43,088 bases of DNA from a virus, in the IMG/VR virus record IMGVR_UViG_3300012917_000002, positions 1 through 43,088 of that record. One strand, given 5' to 3'. A program made the translations under genes and the position numbers. The notes beneath the pieces are model-generated. The model searched no databases. It was not told the origin of the DNA and worked only from the letters and a program-made list of their open reading frames with translations. Below, piece by piece: positions 135-42,448 of this stretch. Position 1 is the first letter of the stretch; every line of letters begins with the position of its first letter.

Positions 135-2591
135 TTGAACCAATTAGTTGAAAAAGATATAAAAATTCAAATTCGTGGCCATGGTCTTGATACAGCTAAA
201 GTAATGCTTATAGCTGATGGTGGAACATCTCATGATCTTTCCGCTGGTTATGCTATTACTGGAGATGCTGAGCATAAACTACGAGGCTTTGCAAAAGATA
301 ACAATCTTTATATTGATGAATTTTGGCGTACTTGTCTTATTAAGGATAAGATAAATAACACCTCCGGAGCTAAAGCCATAAGTGAAAATTTAGCTTTACT
401 TACTGATGAGTATAAAAATATACTTAATGATGAAATAAAAGCCATTAAACCAAATTTACTTGTCCCACTTGGAGAACTATCTTTTAACTTCATAACTACT
501 CTTAAAGGTATACGTAAATATCGTGGGTCAATCTTACCATCCCGCGCCGACCTTGGAGAAGCTAATGGACCGCTTCGTGTTATCCCAATTCTTGGGCCAA
601 ATCCATATCTCTATGAAGATGTAAAAATGGAATTTATAACCCGCCTTGATTTTTCCAAAATAGCTAAAAATTATCATGAAGTTGGTCCAATTAAAGAAAT
701 AGGTAATTGTTGGGTCGCGCGGTCCGCGGAGAATGTACGAAAATTTTTTTCCCGTCATTACAGCAAAGCTGAGTTTGTAGTCTTTGACATAGAAACATTT
801 GTAGATATTCCTACTTGTATCTCTTTCTGTTTTGATGGTGAAGAATCAATGTGTGTACCTTTAATAGATACGGAGATTCCTATCGACGATCGTGCACTTA
901 TGATGTATGAAGTAGCAAAGCTTTTAGCCTCTCCAATACCAAAAATAAACCAAAATATAAAATTTGATTGGAAGAAACTTGAGAAAGTAGGATTTTATGT
1001 CAATAATATCTGTGGTGATACTATGTTGGCTGCTGGCTGTTTATATTCTGAGTTCCCTAAAAATCTCGGGTTTCTCACAAGTATCTACACAGAAATGCCT
1101 TACCACAAAGATGAAGGTAAAGACTTTAATCCTACTAATAATAAGCGGGACAGCCTTTATCTTTATTGTTGTAAGGATTCTCTATCTACTAATCGAATCT
1201 ATAAGGCACAGATAGAAGAACTAAAAGAGACAGGCACTGAAGAAGTCTATAATAAACTTATAGAAATCATGCCAATATATAAAGGTATGGAGCAAACAGG
1301 TATATTAATAGATAATGCTGTGCGATGTGCTTTGCGTGCTAAATATGAAAATATCTATGATATACAGCTTTATAAACTTAAAAAACTATGTGGCGAAGCC
1401 ATAAATCCACTAAGTCCTAAACAATGTGATCGTATTGTATTTGATGAGCTTAAATTTAAGAAACTACGTGGCGTTACAGGAACAGACGAAGAATCGTTAG
1501 AATTACTTGCATGGATGGGGCGTAGTGAATCAATAACACATGGAGATTATGCAAATGAAATTCTTCACACGATTGTGGCATGTCGTAAAATACACAAAAC
1601 ACTTGAATATTTAGAGACTCCAACTCACCCTGATGGACGTTTACGGTGTGAATATAATTTATCAGGTACCGAGACAGGCCGAACGACTGCTGGAAAAACT
1701 ACTGATTATCTATTGGTATATGACGGAAAAAAAATTAAGACAGTTAATATTGGACGATCATTTCAAACCATCTCAAAACATGGCTTCACAGTAGAAGGAC
1801 TAATCTATGGAAAAGATTTACGTAGTATGTTTGTCCCTACTCCTGGCTATAGTTTTGTTGAGTGTGATTTATCTGGAGCAGAAGCCAGAGTGGATGCAAT
1901 CTTGGCAATGGATTTTGATATACTTCCTATTTTCGATAGTGTGGTCGGTATTCATAGGGTTACTGGTTCTTGGGTTTTTAATTGTGATCCAACCGATATA
2001 AAGAAAGGTCTAGTTTTTAATAGTGCAGGTATTGGAGAAGATAGATATTATATCTCAAAGAGGGTCCGTCACGCTGGTGAGCGTAATATGCGAGAAGATC
2101 GTCTAATGCTGATGATACATAAACCACAAAAAGAATGTGCAGAAATTCTAAAGGTATTTCATGAAAAACAACCAAAAATCCGAGAAATCTTCCATTACGA
2201 CATCACCAAAGCTGTCAGAGAAAAGAGGCAACTTATATGCCCTAACGGTAGGCGGAGAGATTTTTATGGTAGAATAGATAAGCATACCATTAATGAAGCC
2301 ATTTCTGTTTTACCACAAGCTATTGTTGGAGATCAACTTAAATTCTCATTCCCAGAAACTTTTAGAGAAACTAAAGAATATGCAAGACTTCTTGTAGAAG
2401 CCCATGATGGTTGTCTTAATGAAGTTAAAATTGGCCGTGAAGTGAAGTTTGCTAAAATCTTTAAAAAAAATGTAGAGATACCAATAGATTTTAGAAAATG
2501 CTCACTTCCACGAGAATATGATCTTATAATTCCATGTGAAACACAATGGTCAAAAGAAAATTGGCAGAATTTGGAGGATTTACATTTATGA
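135..2591 (+). CDS. Family A DNA polymerase with 3'-5' exonuclease domain and an N-terminal UDG-like extension
   Basis: 818-aa ORF. Exo motifs: VFDIETF, NIKFDWKKL, YCCKDS. Pol A motif A is DLSGAEARV and motif C is EAHDG. The N-terminal ~170 aa (VMLIADGG...LLVPLGE...ILGPNP) resembles a family-4 UDG fold with non-canonical motifs. Start is TTG 135 or in-frame ATG 204. Confidence 0.9.
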   Translation: MNQLVEKDIKIQIRGHGLDTAKVMLIADGGTSHDLSAGYAITGDAEHKLRGFAKDNNLYIDEFWRTCLIKDKINNTSGAKAISENLALLTDEYKNILNDEIKAIKPNLLVPLGELSFNFITTLKGIRKYRGSILPSRADLGEANGPLRVIPILGPNPYLYEDVKMEFITRLDFSKIAKNYHEVGPIKEIGNCWVARSAENVRKFFSRHYSKAEFVVFDIETFVDIPTCISFCFDGEESMCVPLIDTEIPIDDRALMMYEVAKLLASPIPKINQNIKFDWKKLEKVGFYVNNICGDTMLAAGCLYSEFPKNLGFLTSIYTEMPYHKDEGKDFNPTNNKRDSLYLYCCKDSLSTNRIYKAQIEELKETGTEEVYNKLIEIMPIYKGMEQTGILIDNAVRCALRAKYENIYDIQLYKLKKLCGEAINPLSPKQCDRIVFDELKFKKLRGVTGTDEESLELLAWMGRSESITHGDYANEILHTIVACRKIHKTLEYLETPTHPDGRLRCEYNLSGTETGRTTAGKTTDYLLVYDGKKIKTVNIGRSFQTISKHGFTVEGLIYGKDLRSMFVPTPGYSFVECDLSGAEARVDAILAMDFDILPIFDSVVGIHRVTGSWVFNCDPTDIKKGLVFNSAGIGEDRYYISKRVRHAGERNMREDRLMLMIHKPQKECAEILKVFHEKQPKIREIFHYDITKAVREKRQLICPNGRRRDFYGRIDKHTINEAISVLPQAIVGDQLKFSFPETFRETKEYARLLVEAHDGCLNEVKIGREVKFAKIFKKNVEIPIDFRKCSLPREYDLIIPCETQWSKENWQNLEDLHL

Positions 2592-3010
2592 ATTATTGTA
2601 CAAAAGATGAGCATATATTTGATAATCAAGCTACTTGCTTATGTGGTATGTTACCAAATATTACTAGAGAATCCGCAAAAAGAGATCCTATAAAAGTTCG
2701 ATATGATATATTATTTCCACCATTTTTAGATGCATTAGCAAAGATAGCCCATTTTGGTGCAGAAAAATATGGTGATTTTAATTGGACTAAATCTCGTCTT
2801 AGAGGTGAAAAATCTCCAATTAATCATATTTATAAACATTTAAGTTCATATATTTGTGATGAACATTACGATCACTTAGAACTAGGGACAGAGCGAAAGT
2901 GGCATCTAGCTTCAATAGCTTTTAATGCAATGATGGAATTTTATTATGAAACAGAAGCACAACTACCCTCAATTCAGGAAAAAAGCACCACCAGTAAAAT
3001 TAAAATGTGA
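2588..3010 (+). CDS. dATP/dGTP diphosphohydrolase N-terminal-domain-like protein
   Basis: RYDILFPPFLDALAKIAHFGAEKYGDFNWTK...INHIYKHL matches my memory of the phage dATP/dGTP pyrophosphohydrolase family pattern. I prefer ATG 2588, which overlaps the polymerase stop as ATGA. The ORF track starts at 2546. Confidence 0.6.
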   Translation: MNYCTKDEHIFDNQATCLCGMLPNITRESAKRDPIKVRYDILFPPFLDALAKIAHFGAEKYGDFNWTKSRLRGEKSPINHIYKHLSSYICDEHYDHLELGTERKWHLASIAFNAMMEFYYETEAQLPSIQEKSTTSKIKM

Positions 3011-3107
3011 ATGTAATAATTTCTCTGGTTCTTATGATTCCCGAAATCGCTCATGTAAAACATGTTATATACGACAATACATGAGAAATAGAAGAGCTGG
3101 TTATTAA
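2946..3107 (+). CDS. Small basic CxC...CxxC Zn-ribbon-like protein (53 aa), overlapping the 3' end of the previous gene
   Basis: Hand translation: MKQKHNYPQFRKKAPPVKLKCECNNFSGSYDSRNRSCKTCYIRQYMRNRRAGY. It fills an otherwise empty gap at 3011-3134. It is below the 60-aa cut-off of the ORF track. Confidence 0.35.
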   Translation: MKQKHNYPQFRKKAPPVKLKCECNNFSGSYDSRNRSCKTCYIRQYMRNRRAGY

Positions 3108-3134
3108 CTTTATGTCTTATAGAAAGCTATCAGT

Positions 3135-4340
3135 GTGCCGACAGACTTTATTTCTTGTTTTATGGAACATACAAAAAGTTACGAATCTCCAAAGTCTTTT
3201 TGGAAATGGTCCGCCTATGTCACTATCGCTTCTATATTACGAGACAATTGCTATAAAAAACAAGGAGATGTATTTACCTATCCAAATATATATGTACTAC
3301 TTATCGCAGATTCTGCTGTACATCGTAAAGGTAATCCAGTTAAACTTTGTGAAAAACTGGTTACAGCCATACATAATACTAAAATTATTTCAGGACGCGC
3401 CTCAATACAGGCAATTCTTGATGAATTATCTCATGGAGAAACTGACAAAAAGACAGGAAAAACAATTACTGGTGGTTCAGCGCTATTCAGTGCCAGTGAA
3501 TTAAGTGCAGGTATTGTAGGTGATCCAGCAGCTATTCAAATTTTAACGGATATTTATGATTATAAAGATGAATACGTATCTCGACTTAGAGGAACTGGAA
3601 CTTTTAGAATTAAGAATATATGCTTTTCAATGCTCGCAGCATCCAATGAAGACTTGCTTGTAGATATCTATGATACGAAAGCAATCTTCGGCGGTTTACT
3701 TGGACGTACATTCCTTATAAAACCCAACGAGTTTCGAGCTGGAAATAGTTTATTTAATTTCCCAGACACCACAGAATCCCTTGCAAACCTTATAACAATG
3801 TTGCGAAGCATAGAAGCTCTAAAGGGAGAATTCGTATTTACTACGGCCGCCCAGACAGAATATGAATCTTGGTATTTACCATTTCGTGAATCATATAGAA
3901 TTAAAAGTGATAAATCAGGTGTGGCGGGCCGTATTCATATAGGTGTACTTAAAATAGCAATGCTTTTAGCAGTAAATTATCAAAATACACTTATTATAGA
4001 TAAGGAACATATAGAGGAGGCAATACTGGAATGTTTGGGACTTATCCCAAATTACAGTTCATTTATTATGTCATCAGGAAGATCACCAGATTCAGCTTGT
4101 GGGTCCATTATCATTAATCATATCTACGAAAATGAACAACATCGCGCCGCGCGGAAAGAAATTCTTTTTAAACATTTAAATGCATTCACAATTGAGCAAT
4201 TTGACCAAGTTATAGATAAACTAATACAAGCAGGAATGATTAAAGAGGATATGATTGGTGAAGGAATTGCATATAGCCTTACTAAGAAATGTTTGGATAC
4301 ATTATTCAGTCAAGAGAAAGGATCTAAGGCTAATGGATAA
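3135..4340 (+). CDS. DUF3987-like protein (degenerate P-loop, replication-associated)
   Basis: 401-aa ORF. The N-terminal pattern (SPKSFWKWSAYVTIASIL...NIYVLLIADSAVHRKG...ASIQAILDEL...FSASE) resembles DUF3987 proteins found with phage primase/helicases. The Walker A motif is not canonical. Start is GTG 3135 or ATG 3162. Confidence 0.5.
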   Translation: MPTDFISCFMEHTKSYESPKSFWKWSAYVTIASILRDNCYKKQGDVFTYPNIYVLLIADSAVHRKGNPVKLCEKLVTAIHNTKIISGRASIQAILDELSHGETDKKTGKTITGGSALFSASELSAGIVGDPAAIQILTDIYDYKDEYVSRLRGTGTFRIKNICFSMLAASNEDLLVDIYDTKAIFGGLLGRTFLIKPNEFRAGNSLFNFPDTTESLANLITMLRSIEALKGEFVFTTAAQTEYESWYLPFRESYRIKSDKSGVAGRIHIGVLKIAMLLAVNYQNTLIIDKEHIEEAILECLGLIPNYSSFIMSSGRSPDSACGSIIINHIYENEQHRAARKEILFKHLNAFTIEQFDQVIDKLIQAGMIKEDMIGEGIAYSLTKKCLDTLFSQEKGSKANG

Positions 4341-5293: not shown

Positions 5294-6698
5294 ATCCATC
5301 TTCCTTCTTAAGATAGAGACTTGCTCCACGAAGACTATGTACAATTGCTTGAGAAAGTAAAGATGCTTCTGGTGCAGATGCATTAGTTTTAGTAGCCTGA
5401 AGTATCATTTGACCTAGCTGAGGATTACTTATTACTTTCTTAATAGCGTCTGATCCAAATATAATTCCTTCGGCCGCGCCAAATGGTACCCCCAATGCAC
5501 GAAATGGTAAGCTAAGAAGCAATACTTTCCGGCCTTCTCTCCAACTCATTAGATCAGTAGCTTTACCAACACCCTTATCTTGTGCTGTCTTCATTAATGC
5601 AGTAAATGTATCTAATGCTGGCTTTCCAAATGCTTCTTCATATATATCTGGTTTATTTCCTAATTCATTTAAAATAGCTGTAGGATTAATTGTATCAGCT
5701 GCTTTATAATAATTGCGTGTAACAAGATCATTGGCAGCCATCTGGCGTATAAGTGTAGGATTACCTGTAGCTAATTTCATATTGCGGACCGTGGTTACAT
5801 CTGATAACATGTCCTTTACAATTGGTGCTATCTTAGTAGTAGAAATTCCAGTTTGATTATATGGAACATTAAATAATTCATTAAGACTAGTTTCTGGTAT
5901 ATTTTGTTTTCCAGGTATGTTAGGTAGATTTTGCCGCATATTTTCAGCAGCAGTCTCCACAAGACTAGATTCTGGCATCATATATCCTTTGGCTTGATTT
6001 ACAAGTTGAGCTATCTTAACTGCTGGAGCTGCCAAAGTTTTTGTACCAGGCATAGCTAACATTGCGCCACGAAGTCCACGACTAGCTATACTACCTAAAA
6101 TAGATGGTAAAACTCCTTGAGATAAAATATCTCCACCATAATCAACAACCCGCTCTCCAGTTGTAACTCCAGGTGCACCAAATATAGATGGTGCTATGTT
6201 TTTAAGTGCTTGTCCTGTCGATGCTCCTACAGCTGCACCACCAATTGGTGCACCAATAACACTTCCTAAAATACTTCCTATCATTGCTAAACCTTGTGGT
6301 GTTTGTCTTGCAAATGCTCTAGCTGTACCTCCAAGTGAAGCTGGTTGAGAACCTTCATCATAAGATTCTCCAGGTTTAACATATACATCACGATTAGGAC
6401 CTGCCCAACTTCCAGCTTTTTCTGGTGCAAATTTGGCATACTGTGATTCATTAGAAAAAGTAGGATGGTTTGGTTTCTTAAAAGTATCTGGCCAATGTCC
6501 TGTTTGTGGATCTGGTGTTAAGCCAGCTTTAAAAGCGCCACGTAAATCATAATCAGCTCCTGAATCTTTAGGGGCATATTTTTGTTTCCATGCTTGAAAT
6601 TTGGTTTCATCTTGAGAAGATAATGGTGTATCAAAAGATTCTGGTATGTAACCATGTGGCGCGGCTGATTCTAATGTATATCCAGTAGGAGGAGGCAT
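5241..6698 (-). CDS. Putative internal virion/ejection protein with Gly-rich hydrophobic segments
   Basis: 485-aa ORF at the distal end of the late operon. GLAMIGSILGSVIGAPIGGAAVGAS looks like a membrane segment. Confidence 0.45.
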   Translation of the reverse strand: MPPPTGYTLESAAPHGYIPESFDTPLSSQDETKFQAWKQKYAPKDSGADYDLRGAFKAGLTPDPQTGHWPDTFKKPNHPTFSNESQYAKFAPEKAGSWAGPNRDVYVKPGESYDEGSQPASLGGTARAFARQTPQGLAMIGSILGSVIGAPIGGAAVGASTGQALKNIAPSIFGAPGVTTGERVVDYGGDILSQGVLPSILGSIASRGLRGAMLAMPGTKTLAAPAVKIAQLVNQAKGYMMPESSLVETAAENMRQNLPNIPGKQNIPETSLNELFNVPYNQTGISTTKIAPIVKDMLSDVTTVRNMKLATGNPTLIRQMAANDLVTRNYYKAADTINPTAILNELGNKPDIYEEAFGKPALDTFTALMKTAQDKGVGKATDLMSWREGRKVLLLSLPFRALGVPFGAAEGIIFGSDAIKKVISNPQLGQMILQATKTNASAPEASLLSQAIVHSLRGASLYLKKEDGSKEKIQVSQDGQLQTPH

Positions 6699-8089
6699 TA
6701 TTGATTCACTGGTTGATTTGTAGTTGCATCTTTAAAAGTCTTACCATTATCTTCAGTATATACACGATGCCCTATTGAATTACGATAATATTGTCTTCCA
6801 CTTTGCGGACTGTTTGGCGCTTCACTAGAAGATTCTTCAGGAAGTATATCTTTAATACCTCGATCCTGCAAAATAACTTTTACATCTTCTGGATTTATTC
6901 CAGAAAAAATGCCTTTAAGATTTTGATTAATAATCTTTATATGTTGATTTATCTTATCAAGGTTATCTTTAGTTGAAGATCGAGGATCAAATAAACCTGT
7001 TACTTGTCGTTTAATTTCTTGGTCACTTTTCCTATTCTGTTTATCAAAGAAAGAAGCAAGACTACCACCTAATGTTTCAGCAGCATTTATCTTAGACTTA
7101 AGTTCAGTGAATGGAACATGGCTTCCTCCAACTGTGTAAACTATACTAGAATCCTTAGCATCTCTACTAAAATTAAGTGCTAAATCTTTATACATCCCCA
7201 TCATTTCTTCCATACGCCCAATATTATCTAAATAATCATTCTGTTGTTTTTGGTTAGTTGGAAGATTTGTTCCACGCTGACCTGCTAAATTAAGTACGCC
7301 AGCTTTAACTTCTTTAGGTAGAGCACTAAAACTAGTTTGCCCACCTAATACACCTTTATAAGCTTGAGCTACAGCGTCAGGATCAGTTTGTGTCATTAAA
7401 GCTGAACGAGCCGCGGCCGCATGTATTTTTGCAACTTCTATATCAAAGGCTCCTTTGAGCCTAGTATCTTTCTCACGAGTATCATTATCGTACTTATGTA
7501 TAAACATAGCACGTTCAAATTCAGCAGTATCATGTCTCTCTTTTTCTGGTCCAGTAACAGATCCAACCCCGGCTGCTTGAGCCCTTGATTGATCGTAGAT
7601 AATCTGATTCTGCTGAGATGGTGACCCGAAAACATTTGGATTTACATTACCTACTCCAGGTATATTTACTTTACCAGAACCAGCATTAGGATTAAGTATA
7701 GTTGGTATATCTATAGGAGATTGATAAGATTTATTGGGTGCTTCTCCTCCAGCAGATTGTCCACCAAACATTCCACCAACATCTCCACCAGTTTGTTGTA
7801 TACCTTGTAATGCTTTAAGTCTTCCAATTTGTTGATCTTCTAATACACTTTGAAGCTGGTCATGATACATTTCAAGATGACGTTTATTAAGTTCATGTTC
7901 TTTCTCAAACTGAGATTCTTGCTGCTGTAGTTGTGATTGTCTAAAACCTTCTTCAGCTTTAGCTTGTCTAGTTTTCTCAGCCAATTCTTTAGCAGATTGC
8001 TGAGTTTGCGATGTATGAATCATCGCTTGAATGATAGGATTTATATATTGGTCTTCGTTAGCCATCTTAATTAGATTTCCTAGCTGCAA
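6698..8089 (-). CDS. Putative internal virion protein (Gln-rich coiled-coil N-terminus)
   Basis: 463-aa ORF that abuts the downstream gene and has a Q/E-rich helical N-terminal third. Confidence 0.45.
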   Translation of the reverse strand: MQLGNLIKMANEDQYINPIIQAMIHTSQTQQSAKELAEKTRQAKAEEGFRQSQLQQQESQFEKEHELNKRHLEMYHDQLQSVLEDQQIGRLKALQGIQQTGGDVGGMFGGQSAGGEAPNKSYQSPIDIPTILNPNAGSGKVNIPGVGNVNPNVFGSPSQQNQIIYDQSRAQAAGVGSVTGPEKERHDTAEFERAMFIHKYDNDTREKDTRLKGAFDIEVAKIHAAAARSALMTQTDPDAVAQAYKGVLGGQTSFSALPKEVKAGVLNLAGQRGTNLPTNQKQQNDYLDNIGRMEEMMGMYKDLALNFSRDAKDSSIVYTVGGSHVPFTELKSKINAAETLGGSLASFFDKQNRKSDQEIKRQVTGLFDPRSSTKDNLDKINQHIKIINQNLKGIFSGINPEDVKVILQDRGIKDILPEESSSEAPNSPQSGRQYYRNSIGHRVYTEDNGKTFKDATTNQPVNQ

Positions 8090-8303
8090 CAGCTAATCCA
8101 ATTTCTATCCCTATAGCTAAACTTCTTGAAAATTCAACAGCATAATCTTTATCTGCTTCAGGTTTTTGCATTAAAGCTATATCAACTAGAAATTGTGCAT
8201 ATTCTTCATCATCTAATCCATTATTTGCAGCAACACAAATTGGATAAAAAGTACTATATTGTCTTAACCAATCCAAAATTTCTTTAGCTAACATTTTATC
8301 CAC
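8067..8303 (-). CDS. Hypothetical protein
   Basis: 78-aa ORF packed into the late operon. Confidence 0.45.
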   Translation of the reverse strand: MDKMLAKEILDWLRQYSTFYPICVAANNGLDDEEYAQFLVDIALMQKPEADKDYAVEFSRSLAIGIEIGLAVAARKSN

Positions 8304-33318: not shown

Positions 33319-33333
33319 CTAAAATCTCCTCAT

Positions 33334-33362: not shown

Positions 33363-33371
33363 TCAAGAGAC

Positions 33372-33732: not shown

Positions 33733-33736
33733 CATA

Positions 33737-34279: not shown

Positions 34280-34350
34280 ATAGTAATGATAGAGTCAAGA
34301 AAAATCTGACCTTCGATCACCTTCGGTCGAAAAAGTTCAACATTTTAATA

Positions 34351-34395
34351 AAGAAAAGGCGAAACTCTCCGGGTAGAAAACCTTCGCCTTTTCTT
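34351..34395. terminator. Perfect 13-bp hairpin with A-tract/T-tract flanks (bidirectional terminator-like or operator)
   Basis: AAGAAAAGGCGAA (34351-63) pairs with TTCGCCTTTTCTT (34383-95) around a 19-nt loop. It lies in the divergent control region. Confidence 0.5.
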
Positions 34396-34429
34396 CAAAA
34401 GTATCAATAGATGGTTAGGAGGCGAATAT

Positions 34430-34567
34430 ATGGCGAAGCGCTCCCCCCACATGTCACAATGTTTTCACCATAATTCCATGATTCTAAAAGGGTTATCAGT
34501 TGAAGATATGAGAGTAGATTACCGTTCGTTCGCTCCGTCCATCCAGCCTCACAGAGAATGGTTGTAA
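34430..34567 (+). CDS. Micro-ORF (45 aa) with strong Shine-Dalgarno in the control region
   Basis: AGGAGG lies 7 nt upstream of the ATG. Hand translation: MAKRSPHMSQCFHHNSMILKGLSVEDMRVDYRSFAPSIQPHREWL. Confidence 0.35.
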   Translation: MAKRSPHMSQCFHHNSMILKGLSVEDMRVDYRSFAPSIQPHREWL

Positions 34568-34779
34568 GTGATTGATTTTAAAGTATTATAAAAAAAACTT
34601 ATAAAGAAATATCCGCCCCTCCCGACGTTTTCGCCTTTTCTTCATTGTCCTTTAGAATGAGTCACTTACATATCTCTTCTAATGTCTCCCACAGGGCCAC
34701 AAGGTTTCGCCAACCGGACGGGGCTTAGGACCTTTAGCCTTTACCTGATAACTCATTGACTCCATAGCAAATAAAACCC

Positions 34780-34808
34780 TTGACAGCCTCCCTACAGCGT
34801 GCTACGAT
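34780..34808 (+). promoter_or_regulatory. Sigma70-like promoter for the rightward arm
   Basis: TTGACA (34780-85), a 17-nt spacer, then TACGAT (34803-08). It faces the replication genes. Confidence 0.5.
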
Positions 34809-35074
34809 CGACCATGGACCGACCTCAGACTCTTTACTCCATGCTTCATGAAGACAAGGCGAAGACTATCCGTCGGTCGAAGTCCTTTGCTATCAGCACC
34901 CCGAAAAAAGATGCTCAGATTCCATTCTCATTAAATGCTGAGTTTTTACCACTCGATAAACTATTAACTTCGAGAATTAAGCCAGCACGTATGAAACGAT
35001 CTAGGCTAATACCTACAAAAATTCAAAATTCACGGCTAAGCGACACATCTTCGCCGCGATCCAAGGGAGCGTGA
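34799..35074 (+). CDS. Doubtful basic low-complexity ORF (may be 5' leader)
   Basis: This track ORF overlaps the putative promoter. If real, it probably starts at ATG 34814. Its composition is Ser/Lys/Arg-rich. Confidence 0.25.
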   Translation: MLRSTMDRPQTLYSMLHEDKAKTIRRSKSFAISTPKKDAQIPFSLNAEFLPLDKLLTSRIKPARMKRSRLIPTKIQNSRLSDTSSPRSKGA

Positions 35075-35077
35075 ACC

Positions 35078-35308
35078 ATGGCTGAAATCATGAGTCGAGC
35101 AGAACATATCGCATGGGCTAAGAAGCGAGCACTCAAATATCTAGAGTCCAACAACCTTAAGGATGCCTTTATTTCGATGTTGTCGGATCTCAAAAAGCAC
35201 GATGAATTGAAGCATCATATTGGCATTGACTTGGGCTGGATTGAATTGGTGACCGGAATGCTTCAAGACTCTCATCGAATGCGCCACTGGATCGAGGGAT
35301 TCAATTAA
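35078..35308 (+). CDS. Hypothetical early protein
   Basis: 76-aa ORF with AAGGGAG upstream of the ATG. Confidence 0.55.
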   Translation: MAEIMSRAEHIAWAKKRALKYLESNNLKDAFISMLSDLKKHDELKHHIGIDLGWIELVTGMLQDSHRMRHWIEGFN

Positions 35309-35341
35309 AAGTTACAATGGAATCATCGAAGAGGACAACAT

Positions 35342-35506
35342 ATGTCAAGCCGAAAACAACCACGTAAGCTACGAAACATTTGTCTATGGTATAAGTGTAA
35401 TCGACTAATATCACCAAATGCTTTGCATTGTTCGGAACACAGAGTAATGGTAAAAACTCTGCCAGAAGATAAGCCAGTAAAAGGAGTGAGTCCAAATGTC
35501 AATTAG
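35342..35506 (+). CDS. Zn-ribbon-like micro-protein (54 aa)
   Basis: Hand translation: MSSRKQPRKLRNICLWYKCNRLISPNALHCSEHRVMVKTLPEDKPVKGVSPNVN. It is on the operon strand and replaces the antisense track ORF 35301-35495. Confidence 0.45.
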   Translation: MSSRKQPRKLRNICLWYKCNRLISPNALHCSEHRVMVKTLPEDKPVKGVSPNVN

Positions 35507-35711
35507 TGAATTACCATTTCCAAGATTTGAAGGATCAAAGTATACTAAGGAGATAAAACTTACAACAGATTTTTATCTTAGTCAGTGGATAGTACCAAAA
35601 GAAACAAAAGTCAAATTATTCACGACAAGAGATTTTGGTTATTGCATCATTCCAACAAATACGCAAGACGTTCGTGGATTCACGATTCCAAGAAGAATTT
35701 TCAAGTACTAA
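35496..35711 (+). CDS. Hypothetical protein
   Basis: 71-aa ORF. GGAGTGAG lies upstream of the ATG. Confidence 0.5.
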   Translation: MSISELPFPRFEGSKYTKEIKLTTDFYLSQWIVPKETKVKLFTTRDFGYCIIPTNTQDVRGFTIPRRIFKY

Positions 35712-35715
35712 ATTT

Positions 35716-36378
35716 ATGAGTACAACTAACTGTCTAATCTGTTCTCTACCTCTCGGCGAACTGGAGATATCCGTAAATCGTAAGTGGCACTTTGACTGTG
35801 AGCGCTGCGCTATTTGTGGTGGAGAGGTAAGTGATTCTGTCATTAATGAGTGCTTAACTGATGAACGTGAGGTATCTCACAAACCATGTCACGACAAAAA
35901 GATGGCCACCGCGCGGGACGCAAGACCTGTAGAAGTGACACAAGGTCTCTTAGATTATCTAAATGAGATTCGATTGATGGTTGAACCACAATTACAGTAC
36001 TCAATTGAGGATAATCAATCAACAGCAGAAAAAAAGTTTAACAACTATATTCACGAAAAGTCCATTGACGAAATATTTATCACACTCCGAAAGCTACAAG
36101 CTGTCACAGCATGTTGTAGCATTCTACTTAATGATAAGCAGAAAAAAGAAGTTTCTATTCGCATTAATGTCGAGGAGAAACGAAGGCGTGAAACTGACCT
36201 GCGGTCGAAAGTCACAAGCGCGGAAGATTATCGCAAATCTGAACAATATAAGCTTGAGCGCAAACGTGAAAAGCTAACTCCGGAGGGTAAAGCTATTGCA
36301 CAGCTTATGAAAACATTTGGTTGGTCTGAGGATGTGGCGCGGACACACCTTAAATCTATGAAAGGATCAATACAATGA
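35716..36378 (+). CDS. Cys-rich N-terminal Zn-finger protein with basic helical C-terminus
   Basis: ATG 35716 gives MSTTNCLICSLPLGE...HFDCERCAICGG. It is the same frame as track ORF 35635-36378. Confidence 0.55.
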   Translation: MSTTNCLICSLPLGELEISVNRKWHFDCERCAICGGEVSDSVINECLTDEREVSHKPCHDKKMATARDARPVEVTQGLLDYLNEIRLMVEPQLQYSIEDNQSTAEKKFNNYIHEKSIDEIFITLRKLQAVTACCSILLNDKQKKEVSIRINVEEKRRRETDLRSKVTSAEDYRKSEQYKLERKREKLTPEGKAIAQLMKTFGWSEDVARTHLKSMKGSIQ

Positions 36379-36662
36379 ATAGATGGTTTACAAAAGATGG
36401 AAAAACTAAGAGGATACCAAAAAAATTAAATCCACTAAAGGAATGGAGTAATGAAAATTTTGGTTCTTTAATGCAAGAAAATATGATAAGATTAACAGCA
36501 TCATTAAGGAAAAAATATCCAGAACTAGGCCTAGCGAAAACAGTAGATTTACTAGTTTTCTTATTCGGAGTTTATGATAACAAACAAGTATTATTAACTA
36601 AGACTAGATATAAGGCAGGTGAAAAGATTTACGACACTATCAATAAGGAATCACTACAATGA
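36375..36662 (+). CDS. Hypothetical protein
   Basis: 95-aa ORF with an ATGA overlap with the upstream gene. Confidence 0.5.
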   Translation: MNRWFTKDGKTKRIPKKLNPLKEWSNENFGSLMQENMIRLTASLRKKYPELGLAKTVDLLVFLFGVYDNKQVLLTKTRYKAGEKIYDTINKESLQ

Positions 36663-38421
36663 CAGCTACGCTGTCTTAAGCAATGGTAAAAAAATGAGAC
36701 TCACTACACCATGTCCTCAATGTAGTAAGATTCTTGAAGAGACTTCATCTGTAACTCTAGGTGATAAAATTTTCCAGAGCTACAAATGTGGTCACTCTTT
36801 TATATCCCCGCGCCGTCAGGCGCACCACGATAAGTCTGAACTACTCTACGATTCTTGTGATAGCTCTAAGACTGCCCGCGACTATCAAAAGTCTGGTATT
36901 GAATTTATCATCAACTCTGATTTTAATTGTGTAATTGGCGATCAGATGCGCCTTGGTAAGACACCACAGAGTCTATTGGCTCTAAAGAACGCCTACAATG
37001 AGCGGACACCGGTACTTATTCTAGTTCGCGCTGCAAATTTATGGCAATGGGTACGAGAATACAAAATTTGGACAGACTCTTTGCCACTTGGTATATATCC
37101 AATTGTAGGTACTAAAAACTATATCCCTCGCGGGTTTAGCGCCTACATCATTTCGATGGACACATTCAGTCGTGGTGACATGACGGAACGCTTACTCAAG
37201 TTTGGTTTTAAGTTATGTATAGTTGATGAAGCACATAGCTTTAAGAATACGGATTCTAGCCGAAGCCAAGCGCTTTTAGCTTTCCTTCGTGAAATCAACC
37301 GCGCTGAGATAACCCATGTGATTCCATTTACCTGTATGATCTGTAAACATACATGGGAAGAATCTGTAACCGTTGAGATTAAATCAGCTTTAGCTGAACA
37401 ACGTGTATCTAAGCATACAATCTGTCCTAAATGTTTCGCTAATACATCACATACGGCCGCGGCGCACGTTAAAGTATCTCGCAAATGTGGAGTAGTGATG
37501 CTTACAGGTACAGCTATAAAAAATCGTGCTGATGAGTACTTCGTACCATTAAATATCTTGGCGCCAGACAAGTTCCCATCAATTGAACATTTTCGCCGCC
37601 GATGGCTTGAACAAAACTCTAAGGGTAAATGGAGTCGTATATCACAATACAAATTTGATGACTTTAAGAAAACTATCGAACCATTCGTGTTACGACGTGA
37701 AAAGGAAGATGTCTATAAAGATTTTCCTGCCTTAAATCGAATGTTCACAGTCATTACAATAGATGACCAAAGATTAAAAGATGCCTATAATAAAGTACTA
37801 GATAAAATTGAACATAAGATTGAAATAGGCCACGGGGGTTTCTTTGAAAGTATTGGAGATTTAATGATTCTCCGACAGATATGTGGCCTAGCCAAAGTTA
37901 AGTGGACATCTGACTATGTTGAAAGTATGCTACTTGATTCTGATAATGCCAAAGTAGCAATAGGAATACATCATCACTCAGTGCGCGACACACTTGCTTA
38001 TAACTTGGCGCAATTTGGTTGTATGAAATTTTCAGGTGAAGATAGTGCTGAACGTAAAGACAGGATAATGACCAGCTTCGCTGAAAGCCCGGAGCGATGT
38101 TTAGTTATAAATATGCTGGCAGGTGGTGTCGGTATGGATTTTCATTATATATCTAATATCGTTATCCTAGAGCGTCAATGGTCTTCTGCCGACGAAGAAC
38201 AATTTGAATTCAGATTCTATAATCCTGATAAGTCTATAAAGACAGCTGTCACGAACATAGAATATGTCATAGCTAAAGGTACAATCGACGAATGGTTTTA
38301 TGATCTCATAGAGTCAAAACGAATTATTTTTGGTGAGACTATTGGTACTAATTGGAGTCTTACTTCAGATCCACAAAGCTTTAAGATGCTTCTAGAAAAA
38401 ACGGTGGCGAATAGACTATGA
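36619..38421 (+). CDS. SNF2-family helicase/translocase with N-terminal and inserted Zn-ribbons
   Basis: Motif I is GDQMRLGKT, motif II is IVDEAH, motif III is LTGTAIKNR, and the C-terminal lobe has MLAGGVGMDF. CPQC...CGH lies at the N-terminus and CMICKH...CPKC lies between motifs II and III. Start is GTG 36619 or ATG 36694. Confidence 0.88.
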   Translation: MKRFTTLSIRNHYNDSYAVLSNGKKMRLTTPCPQCSKILEETSSVTLGDKIFQSYKCGHSFISPRRQAHHDKSELLYDSCDSSKTARDYQKSGIEFIINSDFNCVIGDQMRLGKTPQSLLALKNAYNERTPVLILVRAANLWQWVREYKIWTDSLPLGIYPIVGTKNYIPRGFSAYIISMDTFSRGDMTERLLKFGFKLCIVDEAHSFKNTDSSRSQALLAFLREINRAEITHVIPFTCMICKHTWEESVTVEIKSALAEQRVSKHTICPKCFANTSHTAAAHVKVSRKCGVVMLTGTAIKNRADEYFVPLNILAPDKFPSIEHFRRRWLEQNSKGKWSRISQYKFDDFKKTIEPFVLRREKEDVYKDFPALNRMFTVITIDDQRLKDAYNKVLDKIEHKIEIGHGGFFESIGDLMILRQICGLAKVKWTSDYVESMLLDSDNAKVAIGIHHHSVRDTLAYNLAQFGCMKFSGEDSAERKDRIMTSFAESPERCLVINMLAGGVGMDFHYISNIVILERQWSSADEEQFEFRFYNPDKSIKTAVTNIEYVIAKGTIDEWFYDLIESKRIIFGETIGTNWSLTSDPQSFKMLLEKTVANRL

Positions 38422-38816
38422 TGTGCCCACATGAATTTATACACCATTATTGTGTACCAACTGCGTTGAGTATTCTCACAGGAATACCTATCGACGAAGT
38501 AGAATCACAGCTTAAAACCAATTATCTTGGTGACATCGAAATTAAAGATATCTACCTTGGTCTAGCTATTAAATTCTTGAGTGACAATGGATACTATTGG
38601 TATGTTGATGGTAAGGAGGGTATACCATTACAGAAATTTTCACAAATGGTAAATAGTACTATAAATAATGAAGAACATTTGATAGAAATTCAAAACCATG
38701 CACTCGTACTTAAAAATGGTAAAATATTTGATAACAAATATCGCCAAGGCGTAGCCATAACCAACTATGACCGTCGCGCAAATCGTATTATTCGTGCTTA
38801 TAGGATCATAAAATGA
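38418..38816 (+). CDS. Hypothetical protein (possible papain/C39-like Cys-His fold)
   Basis: 132 aa. HHYCVPTALSIL and the later QNHALVL resemble the Cys and His motifs of C39-like peptidases. The call is weak. Confidence 0.3.
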   Translation: MMCPHEFIHHYCVPTALSILTGIPIDEVESQLKTNYLGDIEIKDIYLGLAIKFLSDNGYYWYVDGKEGIPLQKFSQMVNSTINNEEHLIEIQNHALVLKNGKIFDNKYRQGVAITNYDRRANRIIRAYRIIK

Positions 38817-39706
38817 GACAAACCTTAATTCTTGATAGCTCTCAAATATCTTGTTATCTTGAATGTGCTCAACAACATCATTTACGTTATGTAGAGAATT
38901 TAACACATTCTGATGAAATTCGTGAGGATATGGCCGCTGGGACATATGGCCACAAACTTCTAGAAATTTATTACACACATCTAGCTAAAGGATGTGACCT
39001 TAAATGTGCAGTGGCGGCCGTCTATAAGTTTCATTTAGAAGAAAATTTTCCACTTTCACTATCTAAGCGAGCCGATGTAGCTTCACGTTTTGGTATCTAT
39101 TGGATGACTTATAGTCATAATGATATTCAACCTTCTATTGGTCAACCAATCTATAAATTGTCTTCAGGAACTAACGTCAATGAATTAGTAGAAACATGGG
39201 AACCAAAACCTTTAGTTGAGCAAGGATTCTCTTATGAGCTTCTACGTGACAATACTTATCTATTTGTTCTCGAAGGTCGTATAGATTTAATAGGCATTCT
39301 AGGTGGTCAGACTATCTGGTTAGATCATAAATTTCAAGGTCGGCGCCACGATCTTTATAAAAAATCTATACAATTTCGTAACTACAGTCTTGTCACTAAT
39401 TTAAATCTCGGGGTAGTTAACTACATACGGCTTCATAAAGAAGTAACTAAAGATACCCTCGTCAGAGATATTATATCATTTAATAGTTATGAACGCGCAC
39501 TCTGGCGAGAAGAACTTATAGAAATTTTTAAAACAATTTTAAGTGAACAATCACAAGGTGAACCACGTAAAAATCGTGGCGCTTGTGCTGGCAAATTTAG
39601 CATACCTTGTGAATTTACACGTATCTGCGAGGAACCATCATTTGTAACTGTTGAGGCTATAAAGAATACATATTATAAAAAGAAGGAAGTTTGGAAGCCA
39701 TGGTAA
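38813..39706 (+). CDS. PD-(D/E)XK (Cas4/RecB-like) exonuclease
   Basis: GRIDLI...WLDHKF forms the D...D-x-K core. An N-terminal Cys (SCYLEC) plus the C-terminal CAGKFSIPCEFTRIC cluster resemble the Cas4 Fe-S arrangement. Confidence 0.78.
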   Translation: MRQTLILDSSQISCYLECAQQHHLRYVENLTHSDEIREDMAAGTYGHKLLEIYYTHLAKGCDLKCAVAAVYKFHLEENFPLSLSKRADVASRFGIYWMTYSHNDIQPSIGQPIYKLSSGTNVNELVETWEPKPLVEQGFSYELLRDNTYLFVLEGRIDLIGILGGQTIWLDHKFQGRRHDLYKKSIQFRNYSLVTNLNLGVVNYIRLHKEVTKDTLVRDIISFNSYERALWREELIEIFKTILSEQSQGEPRKNRGACAGKFSIPCEFTRICEEPSFVTVEAIKNTYYKKKEVWKPW

Positions 39707-39915
39707 TTGAATCAAGAAGACAGCTTATTATTAGTGAAATTATTCAAGTAGCTGATTATGAATTTACTAGTAATCCTAAGATACCTGGAAAAGTAATAAG
39801 AGAAGTAACTTTTGAAGAATATAAAAAGGATGTACTCCCTAATTGTTCTGAAGAAGAAAAAGATAGATATAAACATAATAATGGATATTTTCATTATGAA
39901 GTATTGGTAGATTAA
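39691..39915 (+). CDS. Hypothetical protein
   Basis: 74-aa ORF on the operon strand. Confidence 0.45.
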   Translation: MEAMVIESRRQLIISEIIQVADYEFTSNPKIPGKVIREVTFEEYKKDVLPNCSEEEKDRYKHNNGYFHYEVLVD

Positions 39916-39917
39916 AT

Positions 39918-40181
39918 ATGCCCCCTAAAATCCACATCCATTCTTACATAAGGATCTCACCTAACATATATCAATGCGCTGATCCTGATTGTAATCATTT
40001 TAACAATAAAAAGTATCTTAAAGGTAAGCGAAGTTTATGTCCACAATGTAAAGAAGTTGATTTTTTACTGACACCAGAACATTTGCGTATGGCTCGCCCA
40101 GTTTGTTTTAATTGCTCTAATACGAAAGAAGCAAAAGCTTTTAGAGAAAAGAAAAGAATTTTAGAGGAGCTTGGTATATGA
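39918..40181 (+). CDS. Zn-finger protein
   Basis: 87 aa with CADPDCNH, CPQC and CFNC motifs. Confidence 0.55.
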   Translation: MPPKIHIHSYIRISPNIYQCADPDCNHFNNKKYLKGKRSLCPQCKEVDFLLTPEHLRMARPVCFNCSNTKEAKAFREKKRILEELGI

Positions 40182-40384
40182 GCCAAAATATTAATGGAAT
40201 ATCGATAATTTGTGTTGAACCAGATTTTATTTGTGGTTTGTGCGGTAAAATAGCAGAAACCAGACCATATGGGCCAAATGGAGAAGAAATATGTTTTGAA
40301 TGTGGTGTTAAAAATGAACCAATGACTACAAAAATGCTGAATCATAAATTATTTGGAGATCCCTTAGATGCCAAAAGCTATTGA
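40178..40384 (+). CDS. Zn-ribbon protein
   Basis: 68 aa with CGLCGK...YGPNGEEICFECG. Confidence 0.55.
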   Translation: MSQNINGISIICVEPDFICGLCGKIAETRPYGPNGEEICFECGVKNEPMTTKMLNHKLFGDPLDAKSY

Positions 40385-41177
40385 CCTCTCACCAGAACAA
40401 CGATTTGTAGGTCTATTCATAGGTCGTTCTGGTTCTGGTAAAACTGTAGCTGCTTGTAGCTTTCCAGGCCCAGTAGAAGTATTGGATTTTGATGGGCGTA
40501 TTCGGGGAATTCTCGGCGCCACATGGTTGAGTCGCGAAGCAATATCCTATGAATTTTATCTACCTAAAGAATTAGGTTTAGTAGATAAACTTAATAAGAA
40601 ATTAGATGGATATCAGATGGCCGCGCGGGTAGGTCAACCACTACCGCGGACACTTATACTCGACTCTTTAACAAGTGAATGCTTCGCAATGGTTCAACAA
40701 GCATTAGGACTGACCCACACTTTAGGAGATAGAAATATTAAAAAAGTTGGAAAATATTTAGGTCAAGTAGCTATGGCCGGCCCAGAAGATTATGGATTTG
40801 AAGCCCAAGCAACCTATGATATTATTGCATTCTTAAGGTCTATTCCTATTCAGAATATAATCGTAAGTGCACATATAGTAGAAAAATATGGAAAAATTGA
40901 CCCTGATAACCCCTACGCAGATTCTGTACCAATTGGAGAAAAGTTATCTGTTAGAGATAAAATCGGAGAGAATATACAAATATATTTTGACCATATCTTT
41001 CGATTTGATCGACGAGAACTCAACGGCCGTATCAATTTCTTTGTCAAATTCAGATCCGATATTGCTCGTACAAGCTACAATGAGCTTCCAGATGGAGAAA
41101 TAGATGTAAGTGGTAAATCGTTTCATGAAATGCTTATGTCTTATGTACGTAGCACGGCAGAGGTAGCTACTATATGA
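40368..41177 (+). CDS. RecA-like ATPase of the AAA_24/Sak4 type
   Basis: Walker A is GRSGSGKT and Walker B-like is TLILDSLT. Its size and its position next to a DUF669-like gene are typical. Confidence 0.75.
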   Translation: MPKAIDLSPEQRFVGLFIGRSGSGKTVAACSFPGPVEVLDFDGRIRGILGATWLSREAISYEFYLPKELGLVDKLNKKLDGYQMAARVGQPLPRTLILDSLTSECFAMVQQALGLTHTLGDRNIKKVGKYLGQVAMAGPEDYGFEAQATYDIIAFLRSIPIQNIIVSAHIVEKYGKIDPDNPYADSVPIGEKLSVRDKIGENIQIYFDHIFRFDRRELNGRINFFVKFRSDIARTSYNELPDGEIDVSGKSFHEMLMSYVRSTAEVATI

Positions 41178-41627: not shown

Positions 41628-41939
41628 ATGACTATATCTGAGGCATGTAAAAATAGAATAGGTAAATTATGTCTACCTACCTGGCATAAATATATGCATA
41701 TTGAATTATATTTGTGTTTTAAAATAGGCTATAGTAAATGGGGTGAACCTCCAGAAGGGATTGGAGAATTATACCATGGTCCTTGGGTAAGATTATATGA
41801 TCCACCTTCATCATTAGTTTTAAATAGAAAATGGAATTATTATGATACACTTACAATATTCTCATTTGGGGGAAGTAATTATAAATCTTGGATAGCTCCA
41901 GAAGATTATGATACTAAATTTCTAATAGCTAAAACCTAA
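41628..41939 (+). CDS. Hypothetical protein
   Basis: 103-aa ORF whose start abuts the previous stop. Confidence 0.5.
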   Translation: MTISEACKNRIGKLCLPTWHKYMHIELYLCFKIGYSKWGEPPEGIGELYHGPWVRLYDPPSSLVLNRKWNYYDTLTIFSFGGSNYKSWIAPEDYDTKFLIAKT

Positions 41940-41998
41940 TACGATTAGCTACTTATTCACTAACAATAATATTAACAACAAAAAGGATACTAACACCA

Positions 41999-42385
41999 AT
42001 GCCAATAATCAAAGTAACACAAGCCGATTTGCTTAAGTCAAAGCTATTAGATCCTGGTTACTATGGGTCTCAAATAATTAAAGTTTCTGGTTTAGAGAAA
42101 ACTAAAGATGGTAAATCTCTTAATGTAGTAATAACATTTCGTATTGATGAAGTGGGAAAAGAAATAGATCATTATTTCAATTCACAAGCTTTTGGTATGA
42201 TCTCTCCACTTCATAAAGCTGTATTTAATAAAGAGATGAAAGAGGGAGAATTCGATACAGATACTCTTAATATGAAGAAAGTAGATTGTAAGATTATCGT
42301 TGATACCTATCAAGGATCTCTTAATAATAAAATTGAAGGTTGGCTTCCTTACGGAACTGGAAAGGAACAAAAGACACATTTCTAA
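41999..42385 (+). CDS. DUF669-like putative ssDNA-binding protein
   Basis: 128 aa. The LDPGYYGSQIIKVS...GKSLNVVITFRI pattern and its proximity to the Sak4-like ATPase resemble DUF669 proteins. Confidence 0.5.
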   Translation: MPIIKVTQADLLKSKLLDPGYYGSQIIKVSGLEKTKDGKSLNVVITFRIDEVGKEIDHYFNSQAFGMISPLHKAVFNKEMKEGEFDTDTLNMKKVDCKIIVDTYQGSLNNKIEGWLPYGTGKEQKTHF

Positions 42386-42448
42386 GTAACGAAGTTATAG
42401 CCGCGCCAAAGATCACCGACGCGGCCGTAAAATAAAACTGCTCTTCTT

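Follow-up and report, generated by a model that had tools for sequence, protein, structure and literature searches.

Several classes of hyper-abundant short DNA words have been described. HIP1 (highly iterated palindrome 1), the palindrome GCGATCGC of cyanobacterial chromosomes, is 15-300-fold over-represented, occurs in all frames and is kept beyond codon constraint; in some lineages, which carry cognate methyltransferases, it is replaced by alternate G/C-rich words, and its function is still debated. The Chi sequences known from experiment (GCTGGTGG, AGCGG, GCGCGTG, GAAGCGG and GCTGGCGC) are 5-8 nt long, G/C-rich and species-specific, and Chi is over-represented at host-like density in phages that need concatemers or are without RecBCD inhibitors; in lambdoid phages its observed-to-expected ratio is about 3 and its density 0.2 per kb. 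The DNA uptake sequences (DUS) of Neisseriaceae and the uptake signal sequences (USS) of Pasteurellaceae, 9-12 nt in length and dependent on natural competence of the carrier cell, occur about once per kb on both strands, within genes and in all frames, at some amino-acid cost; they form lineage dialects with a common core and accumulate by point substitution under transmission bias. Phage genomes are known for avoiding short palindromes, but the AT-rich soil phage studied here, IMG/VR record IMGVR_UViG_3300012917_000002, bears an amino-acid and codon cost for about 80 copies of short G/C words that stand out as islands in its genome. We analysed the record over positions 1 to 43,088, and refer to this whole stretch of 43,088 bp as the window.

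What makes up the islands is not random G/C but three sharp words, GCGGCCG, GCGCGG and GCGCCAC, in overlapping copies. The words are enriched and sharply defined, the force on them acts at the level of DNA, they originated in place, and both the choice of word and its conservation are specific to lineages. In the literature that we searched we found neither a lytic-type phage family as the carrier of such words, nor an excess of this size (10-60-fold), nor several coexisting palindromic and asymmetric words that turn over under lineage-specific constraint. The phenomenon belongs with HIP1, Chi and DUS/USS, which it resembles more than anything described for phages. We favour, at roughly one chance in three, the reading that the words are Chi-like recognition sites for a host helicase-nuclease, although both the identity of this reader and the benefit to the phage are inferred.

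The islands are made of three sharp words

The window has a G+C content of 37.5%, which a sequence-only reading, made by eye, had put at about one third. Runs of at least 7 consecutive G/C number 84, and 20 of these are 10 nt or longer; the earlier count of about 19 was close for the longer runs, but that of about 55 fell well short for the shorter ones. Ten positions of CGGCCGCG/CGCGGCCG, five NotI sites and 26 copies of CGGCCG proved exact on recount, and CCGCGG occurs 11 times. An order-1 Markov model predicts 1.7 CGGCCG, 0.12 CGCGGCCG and 0.08 GCGGCCGC. Across 200 dinucleotide-preserving shuffles the runs of at least 7 averaged 32.5 +/- 5.5 (maximum 45), those of at least 10 averaged 1.9 (maximum 7) and CGGCCG averaged 1.7 (maximum 6). 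Synonymous codons were also shuffled 300 times within genes, which preserves protein sequence and per-gene codon usage, and this gave 40.3 +/- 4.8 runs of at least 7 (maximum 57) and 5.1 CGGCCG (maximum 12). None of the 300 codon shuffles reached the observed value of any statistic, nor did any of the 200 dinucleotide shuffles. The k-mer excess suspected in the sequence-only reading thus survives every codon-shuffle and Markov null, and chance or composition is ruled out by Markov models of order 1, 2 and 3 and by both kinds of shuffle. The codons used in islands are minor ones elsewhere: outside islands GCC, GCG, CGC and CGG supply 11%, 10%, 10% and 6%, respectively, of the codons of their own amino acid, and about 28% of the GCC and GCG codons in the genome fall wholly within islands. 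The individual islands are as follows.

4143..4154, + strand: CGCGCCGCGCGG, in the primase-like gene (QHRAARKE)
5471..5480, - strand: CGGCCGCGCC
7410..7420, - strand: GCCGCGGCCGC, with a NotI site, peptide IHAAAARS
9794..9805, - strand: GGCGGCCGCCCG, with a NotI site
11547..11556, - strand: GCGGCCCGCG, in the gene of a 1106-aa protein
11903..11912, - strand: CCGGCCGCGG, peptide YDPRPEQL; relatives encode the same amino acids by other codons
12898..12908, - strand: CCCGGCCCGCC
17940..17950, - strand: CCGCCCGCGCC, overlapping a GCGCCAC site, in an SU10-type adaptor gene
18331..18346, - strand: CGGGGCGGCCGCGCGG, NotI site plus GCGCGG, peptide YRAAAPTL, in an adaptor gene
19631..19640, - strand: GCGGCGGCGG, in a fibre-like open reading frame (ORF)
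20777..20788, - strand: CCCCGCGGGCCG
22557..22566, - strand: CGGCCGCGCC, second copy
25626..25645, - strand: GCCCGCGGGCGGCCGCCCCC, 20 nt, SacII plus NotI sites, in a KTSC-domain ORF, peptide KGAAARGL
31010..31020, - strand: CGGCCCGCGCC, adjoining GTGGCGCCAC
32054..32064, - strand: CGGCCGCGCGG, a long island formed by word overlap
32185..32200, - strand: GCGGCGGCCCGGGGGG, in a variable region
36806..36815, + strand: CCCCGCGCCG, in the SNF2 helicase gene
37454..37465, + strand: CGGCCGCGGCGC, in the SNF2 helicase gene (SHTAAAHVK)
40619..40629, + strand: GGCCGCGCGGG, in the Sak4-like gene; GCC GCG CGG is kept in the relative L071
41577..41591, no strand assigned: GCCCCGCGCGGCCGC, with a NotI site, intergenic

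Two of the examples first given needed adjustment, 4141-4152 being off by 2 (the run is 4143-4154) and the last example run being 41577-41591; the peptides IHAAAARS, YRAAAPTL and KGAAARGL were confirmed. One of the three words is present in 55 of the 84 islands and in 38 of the 47 that are 8 nt or longer, and three islands are intergenic. The first description, of generic G/C runs built on CGGCCG and CGCGG, is refined accordingly: what overlaps are copies of the three words, of which GCGCCAC had been missed. The sites of the words are these.

CGGCCG (26 sites), first half: 3844, 5471, 7414, 9257, 9796, 10792, 11904, 15308, 18336, 19602, 21281, 22107, 22557
CGGCCG, second half: 23822, 25635, 25758, 28579, 30133, 31373, 32054, 37454, 39015, 41024, 41236, 41585, 42422
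GCGCGG/CCGCGC (33 sites), 542..42406: 33 against 3.8 expected, common clade-wide
GCGCCAC/GTGGCGC (21 sites), 6064..40522: 21 against 1.3 expected, the window-specific word
as GCGCCAC: 6064, 6535, 10237, 17946, 19008, 25752, 30084, 31025, 31356, 32617, 35281, 39343, 40516
as GTGGCGC: 6656, 9562, 12290, 28752, 31022, 32176, 36334, 39576

GCGGCCG itself occurs 25 times against 0.8 expected, and 20 of the 26 CGGCCG sites read GCGGCCG on one strand, the flank being present on both sides at 5 sites, on one side at 15 and on neither at 6. The palindromic form of this word, GCGGCCGC, was observed 5 times against 0.08-0.10, such that enrichment falls from GCGGCCGC (about 60-fold) through GCGGCCG (about 30-fold) to CGGCCG (15-fold). 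A palindromic composite of GCGCGG, CCGCGCGG, is found 6 times against 0.06 expected, and CGTGGCGC, listed with the GCGCCAC/GTGGCGC word, 10 times against 0.2. Among G/C-only hexamers CGGCCG (15-fold over the order-1 expectation), CCGCGC (8.7-fold), GCGGCC (7.6-fold) and CCGCGG (6.4-fold) stand out, whereas GCGCGC (1.0-fold) and CCCGGG (0.5-fold) are not enriched and GGGCCC and GGCCCC are absent. Single-mismatch neighbours of CGGCCG reach just 1-2.6-fold, and those of GCGCCAC number 0-7 copies. We also considered a longer hidden repeat and rejected it: the site flanks are without extended consensus, and recurrent 9-14-mers are word overlaps. The 14-mer CTTCGGCCGCGCCA at island 5471..5480 recurs at 22554, and CCGCGCGGCCG occurs 3 times in the window. 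A scan of IMG/VR with CTTCGGCCGCGCCA returned single chance matches only, in unrelated and mostly G/C-rich contigs, which were reused as a control panel.

Copies of the words are found on either strand and in every reading frame, with an even spread over early and late genes, and the asymmetric words are equally frequent on coding and template strands. Their density is about 1.8 per kb in all, with 0.5-0.8 sites per kb for each word. The sequence-only reading had proposed looking for strand bias and periodic spacing; we saw no orientation polarity of the words along the genome, and their spacing is near Poisson without significant periodicity (CGGCCG coefficient of variation 0.74, p = 0.09). 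These placements bear on a translational explanation, in which proteins would fold better because ribosomes are slowed at clusters of rare G/C-ending codons. The codons of the islands are rare in the window genome, and rare codons are known to cluster. However, asymmetric words are as frequent on the template as on the coding strand and fill all three frames, three islands are intergenic, and it is specific words rather than rare codons generally that are enriched and conserved. Strand and frame symmetry refutes a translational effect, and we give it hardly any credence. Of the roles offered at the outset, nicking is implausible on both strands at such density, and the one-strand sites of T5-type site-specific nicks are not matched, the window words being equal on both strands; replication or transcription pausing does not fit the strand and frame symmetry.

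The islands had also been described as the opposite of palindrome avoidance, which is half of the picture. Within the 6-bp palindrome class known from restriction-site avoidance, CGGCCG, CCGCGG and CGCGCG are hyper-enriched, the sign being reversed, but others are strongly avoided in the window: TGATCA (0 against 16 expected), AGATCT (2 against 23), GCATGC (0 against 4.8) and ACGCGT (0 against 3.7). GATC as such is not avoided (161 against 145). The possibility that the islands are a by-product of avoiding other words was rejected, as the under-represented TGATCA, CTAG and CATG do not force G/C codons. As a separate observation, the asymmetric GGCCYC/GRGGCC is absent from the window (0 against about 9-14 expected), though GGCCGC occurs 37 times.

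Words arose by substitution and are held between genomes that share them

No cultured relatives were found in INPHARED, by DNA or by large terminase (TerL) protein, and a scan of genome contigs for relatives or a host matched only phage contigs binned with metagenome-assembled genomes (MAGs). Uncultured, mostly soil relatives are numerous in IMG/VR, JGI metagenomes and a large protein collection, with more than 500 portal homologues, and over 90 of them were fetched as partial loci, designated here by L numbers; the family spans 36-62% G+C. The portal proteins of the closest relatives are 86-90% identical to that of the window but the DNA only 73-76%, so that synonymous sites are near saturation, and the collections searched held no near-identical relatives that would polarise word gains.

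Aligned to these homologues, island codons are opposite gaps in 2.4% of cases against a background of 1.9%, with amino-acid identity of 0.50 in both, and in none of 47 islands do gaps make up the majority. At island 4143..4154, for example, relatives read ATA ATT AGT CGA or ACG CTT ACG CGG without a gap. The window often has Ala, Arg, Gly or Pro where relatives differ, or encodes the same residue by G/C-ending codons. The words arose by in-place substitution, not insertion, and the gap-free alignment rules out insertions or mobile G/C clusters. Yeast mitochondrial G/C clusters and Rickettsia palindromic elements likewise form G/C-rich patches in genomes rich in AT, some lying in frame within genes, but they are insertions of 30-150 bp, whereas the window islands measure 7-20 nt. 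The window words also resemble DUS and USS, being similarly dense at about 1.8 per kb, strand-symmetric and gap-free against homologues. They differ in that phage DNA is injected, so that an uptake bias is not expected.

Conservation depends on whether the word is shared: between genomes that have it in common, copies of the word and their synonymous codons are kept 2-4 times more than controls. Copies of GCGGCC in the window are kept at the aligned position in 5 of 8 cases in L222 and 6 of 8 in L220 (0.62-0.75; binomial p = 3e-5), where control k-mers are kept at just 0.15-0.21; within the 20-nt island at 25626..25645, GCGGCC is kept in L220. In L217 and L218, which do not share the word, retention is 2 of 11 and 1 of 8, the control level. 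These two genomes share CGCCGC instead, and between them it is kept in 10 of 19 and 10 of 20 cases against 0.22-0.26 for controls (p = 6e-4). At codons without an amino-acid difference, the choice of synonymous codon agrees in 0.63-0.74 of cases in words and in 0.33-0.34 of cases for G/C-only codons outside them (Fisher p = 0.02 and 0.002), with no such excess against L217/L218. Other clades behave alike, GCGCGGCC being kept at 0.50-0.78 against 0.21-0.38 and CCGCGC at 0.47-0.56 against 0.19-0.28. G/C-rich k-mers that are not words are kept less than average, which indicates that G/C runs decay and only words are held. A role of generic G/C runs in protecting duplex stability was rejected on the same grounds, together with the absence of many G/C hexamers. 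Conservation only between word-sharing genomes implies a directional, sequence-specific and lineage-specific force on DNA, and it refutes neutral noise as well as generic causes of a physical or mutational kind. The first suggestion, of selection on the DNA and not on the proteins, is supported in that codon-shuffle nulls fail, the words take all frames and both strands, and synonymous sites are kept in word-sharing relatives.

One might still ask whether the islands have any function. G/C patches could grow without one, and persist in a genome that otherwise drifts towards AT, through a bias in mutation or repair that depends on context, or through gene conversion biased to G/C between relatives that infect together. 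Adjacent G/C-rich synonymous codons do cluster, the positions of islands change between relatives whose nucleotide identity is 75%, spacing is roughly Poisson, and the family spans a range of G+C such that G/C-rich donors exist. But the words are sharp, with many G/C hexamers absent or unenriched; they are kept 3-4 times more, and G/C-rich non-word k-mers are kept less than average; conservation is confined to word-sharing genomes while lineages differ in their words; and a sequence-specific agent would still be needed. Hexamer specificity, word conservation and the same-codon data largely refute a functionless bias, which we consider improbable.

Different lineages carry different words

Nearly every AT-rich lineage of the family has its own hyper-enriched word (counts are observed against expected).

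L038/L040/L053: G[ACG]GCGGCC; GCGCGGCC 47 against 1.4, GAGCGGCC 23 against 1.2
L016/L018: CCGCGCCG; 27 against 0.4
L013/L014/L064/L007: CGGCC[GC]; CGGCC 30-51 against 5-10 per locus
L005/L009: GCCGCC/CCGCC; GCCGCC 64 against 17.7 (order-2)
L072: AGCGGC; 44 against 8.4
L085: GAGCGGGA; 10 against 0.3
L096: AGCGCT, palindromic; 59 against 6.3 in 21 kb

The L038 clade has 79 G[ACG]GCGGCC sites in 61 kb. The sequence-only reading had pointed to related phages as a place to look for the window's motif. GCGCGG is enriched clade-wide, also in L071, L217, L218, L220, L222, L016/18 and the L038 clade, and GCGGCCG is shared, together with GCGCGG, by L220 and L222. These two are without GCGCCAC, which is absent or near-absent in the closest relatives and is thus a word of the window only; the others differ, L217 and L218 carrying CGCCGC/CCGCCG plus GCGCGG. 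The family words are not all G/C-only, because L070 has a strand-biased word, AGCAGCAT (12 against 0.5; 1 on + and 11 on -), and L032 has CAGGTGG (13 against 1.6) and ATCAGG (30 against 11). Relatives of 57-62% G+C show no G/C-word excess. Despite its 37.5% G+C, the window has as many word copies per kb as these relatives have by chance, or more, consistent with a threshold density being under selection.

No word of the family is more extreme than AGCGCT in L096, a contig binned with an uncultured Sphingobacterium MAG. This palindrome occurs at 2.8 per kb and makes up 64% of all GCGC in locus 1-21407, its half-site is not enriched (19 against 25 expected), and its near-cognates are at or below expectation. 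In the control panel of about 70 unrelated viral loci, the only comparable outlier was L190 (IMGVR_UViG_2845860650_000005, 98874-110930, from an isolate genome), a HIP1-rich cyanobacterial prophage-like contig with 19 copies of GCGATCGC in 12 kb, in which each CGATCG lies within a HIP1 site; this contig was used as the positive control for the appearance of a HIP-bearing element.

The main rival to a Chi-like reading is a HIP1-like explanation, in which the words would be targets of conserved, possibly orphan, host cytosine methyltransferases. Their abundance would be created or maintained by a process tied to methylation, be it the choice of strand in repair, DNA uptake or recognition, that acts on any DNA replicating in the host, phage included. 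We regard this as possible, if doubtful. As with HIP1, the window has a short G/C-rich word in tens-fold excess, and an 8-bp palindrome with a 6-bp core in which the outer positions vary most: GCGGCCGC with its core CGGCCG is built like GCGATCGC with its core CGATCG, and the flank pattern is similar (5/15/6). When tested, the excess of GCGGCCGC and its core falls in the 15-300-fold palindrome class, although these make up only part of the island set. HIP1, too, takes all frames, is kept more often than control words and beyond codon constraint, and is swapped for alternate G/C-rich words, and the window words occupy all frames and are kept at the rates given above (0.62-0.75 for words, 0.63-0.74 for the same codon). 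AGCGCT in L096 is a strict 6-bp palindrome, several words per genome resemble a methylome, and L190, with its HIP1 load, is an example of a resident element that carries the word of its HIP host.

Other points separate the window from HIP1. The carrier is a lytic-type phage genome and not a bacterial chromosome, it has several words, and many words of the family are asymmetric 7-8-mers (G[ACG]GCGGCC, CCGCGCCG, GAGCGGGA), which is unusual for methyltransferases. In the complete phage genome we recognised no domain or signature of a DNA methyltransferase, cognate or otherwise, or of a Vsr endonuclease. Nor is HIP1 enriched in the window (CGATCG 3 against 3.4 expected), and periodic spacing was not detected for the window words. 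Very-short-patch repair would predict depletion of the TG/CA variants of CGGCCG, but these are not depleted, and the near-cognates in L096 are depleted at most positions, not just those reached from C to T; we rejected this signature. The repertoire persists while synonymous sites saturate, unlike strain-variable restriction-modification, though orphan methyltransferases are stable. The mechanism of HIP1 is also itself unsettled.

Another model is that the phage encodes the reader. The words would then be binding or processing sites whose recognition co-evolves with them in each phage lineage, and candidates are the SNF2 helicase with the PD-(D/E)XK nuclease and the Sak4-like module, or a small early DNA-binding protein. 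Word repertoires do follow the phage phylogeny, with the window, L220 and L222 grouping against L217 and L218, and GCGCGG is common to deep branches. The family has its own recombination and helicase genes as well as small helix-turn-helix and zinc-finger proteins, and the words are uniform over the whole genome. Against this, a new specificity would need about 20-60 sites to be rewritten per genome, no new gene was identified that could account for GCGCCAC, which arose only in the lineage of the window, and there is no known phage system with about 80 dispersed intragenic sites. We think this model unlikely.

The words as Chi-like signals

A Chi-like role was among those first proposed, and it remains the best single candidate. 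Point substitutions placed the words in the genes of the phage lineage, which keeps them at about 1.8 per kb; according to this reading, it has to build them in to reach a useful density, as almost none would arise by chance in an AT-rich phage. The reader would be a sequence-specific DNA-handling protein that acts on either strand and in any frame; it would have to recognise 6-8 bp, stay stable while synonymous sites saturate and differ between branches of the family. We favour the view that the words act as Chi-type signals for a host end-processing enzyme of the RecBCD/AddAB class. With an oriented word every few hundred bases on linear or broken phage DNA, the enzyme would turn from degradation to RecA loading, and word-bearing phage DNA might be handled like host DNA, such that it is rescued, recombined and sampled less by defence systems. 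Palindromic composites (CGGCCG, GCGGCCGC and CCGCGCGG) may be the cheapest way for a single coding position to offer a word oriented each way. The known Chi sequences share GCGG, GCGC or GGCGC cores with GTGGCGC, GCGCGG and GCGGCC in the window and with AGCGGC and GAGCGG in relatives, and the family words, when tested, are 6-8 nt, all or nearly all G/C, and lineage-specific. The asymmetry typical of Chi is seen in GCGCGG, GCGCCAC and G[ACG]GCGGCC, while CGGCCG, GCGGCCGC and the AGCGCT of L096 are palindromic.

Several points weigh against Chi. Observed-to-expected ratios of 10-60 and densities of 0.5-0.8 per kb per word are far above those of Chi in phages, and the genome has three unrelated words where one Chi per host is the norm. 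As noted, the words are without orientation polarity along the genome. The strict palindrome AGCGCT of L096, whose half-site is not enriched, suggests that a dimer recognises the duplex, as a type II methyltransferase or restriction enzyme would, rather than scanning of a single strand. The hierarchy from GCGGCCGC through GCGGCCG to CGGCCG mirrors that of HIP1 (G-CGATCG-C). Since a Sak4-like annealing protein and a PD-(D/E)XK nuclease are encoded by the phage itself, it could have less need of host recombination, or the reader could be one of its own proteins. The Chi likeness is drawn from a comparison with the table of known Chi sequences. Finally, the word-specific force may be selection, or it may be a word-specific bias in transmission or conversion, which sequence alone cannot separate.

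We tentatively propose that an unrecognised sequence-reading system, encoded by phage or host, might mark DNA as self through lineage-specific signature words, which a whole family of uncultured soil podophages would carry in every gene and keep by selection. Such a system could be the phage counterpart of HIP1, DUS and Chi, with words that shift as lineages diverge, and would differ both from Chi in its classical form and from the methylation systems known so far; this, too, we hold with some doubt.

Why would it matter which words a phage carries? The cost that the phage bears for its words, and the different words of its relatives, are signs that a machine which reads sequence interacts with phage DNA in a strong and unrecognised way. 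Should the words reflect signals of the host, of the Chi or HIP kind, then hosts of uncultured phages, and the recombination or methylation signals of those hosts, might be predicted from sequence alone. A 43-kb phage would also be a tractable system for the 30-year-old question of HIP1-type words, as recoding a phage is far easier than recoding a chromosome. It would add a rule for phage engineering, namely that words be retained, or exchanged when the host is changed.

Gene content and minor observations

The first and last 123 bp of the window (1-123 and 42966-43088) are identical, from which we take it to be a complete phage genome; the repeated ends may reflect overlap in the assembly of a circular molecule, or else a short direct terminal repeat. 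The genome holds the following recognisable genes, and no tRNA genes were found in it.

135-2591: family-A DNA polymerase (PolA), with a weak uracil-DNA glycosylase (UDG)-like N-terminal match
2546-3010: protein with a DUF550-type dATP/dGTP pyrophosphohydrolase N-domain (PF18909, E = 2e-14)
3135-4340: primase-like protein
15676-16692 and 21619-22365: GT-A/GT2-type glycosyltransferase-like genes, in the structural module, kept across relatives
17400-18747: two SU10-type adaptor proteins
21076-21618: generic class-I S-adenosylmethionine (SAM) methyltransferase-like ORF, the only one resembling a methyltransferase, in the structural module between two GT-A-type glycosyltransferases, kept across relatives
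23307-24431: major capsid protein
25681-27516: portal
27519-29018: large terminase
36619-38421: SNF2 helicase
38813-39706: PD-(D/E)XK nuclease
40368-41177: Sak4-like protein

PF18909 is the N-terminal domain of phage dATP/dGTP diphosphohydrolases, and the ORF at 2546-3010 adjoins the polymerase gene. Together with the UDG-like polymerase N-terminus, this ORF hints at an unusual nucleotide metabolism, though no PurZ-like gene was found in the window. The glycosyltransferase- and SAM methyltransferase-like genes have as putative targets capsid or tail glycosylation or DNA modification. An SPPY motif in the ORF at 21619-22365 was considered as a sign of a phage-encoded DNA methyltransferase and rejected, the protein being GT-A glycosyltransferase-like and the serine not conserved. 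A homing-endonuclease-like gene with HNH_3/AP2 domains lies between terminase and portal in L217 (9494-10000), L222 (1724-2221) and L223 (51-548), and is absent from the window, L218 and L220. The fibre-like ORF at 18763-20643 (626 aa) matches K1 lyase weakly at its C-terminus, and none of the fetched relatives has a homologue of it; within it, positions 19001-20000 have 52% G+C over 1 kb. By a loose test, a Shine-Dalgarno-like sequence precedes 20 of 64 window genes, and upstream regions are A/T-rich, which is compatible with a host of the Bacteroidota type, as weak evidence. ACCA, CACCA and CCACCA are enriched in the window with a strand bias (CACCA 92 on + against 46 on -); this is probably an effect of coding or of codon pairs and not related to the islands.

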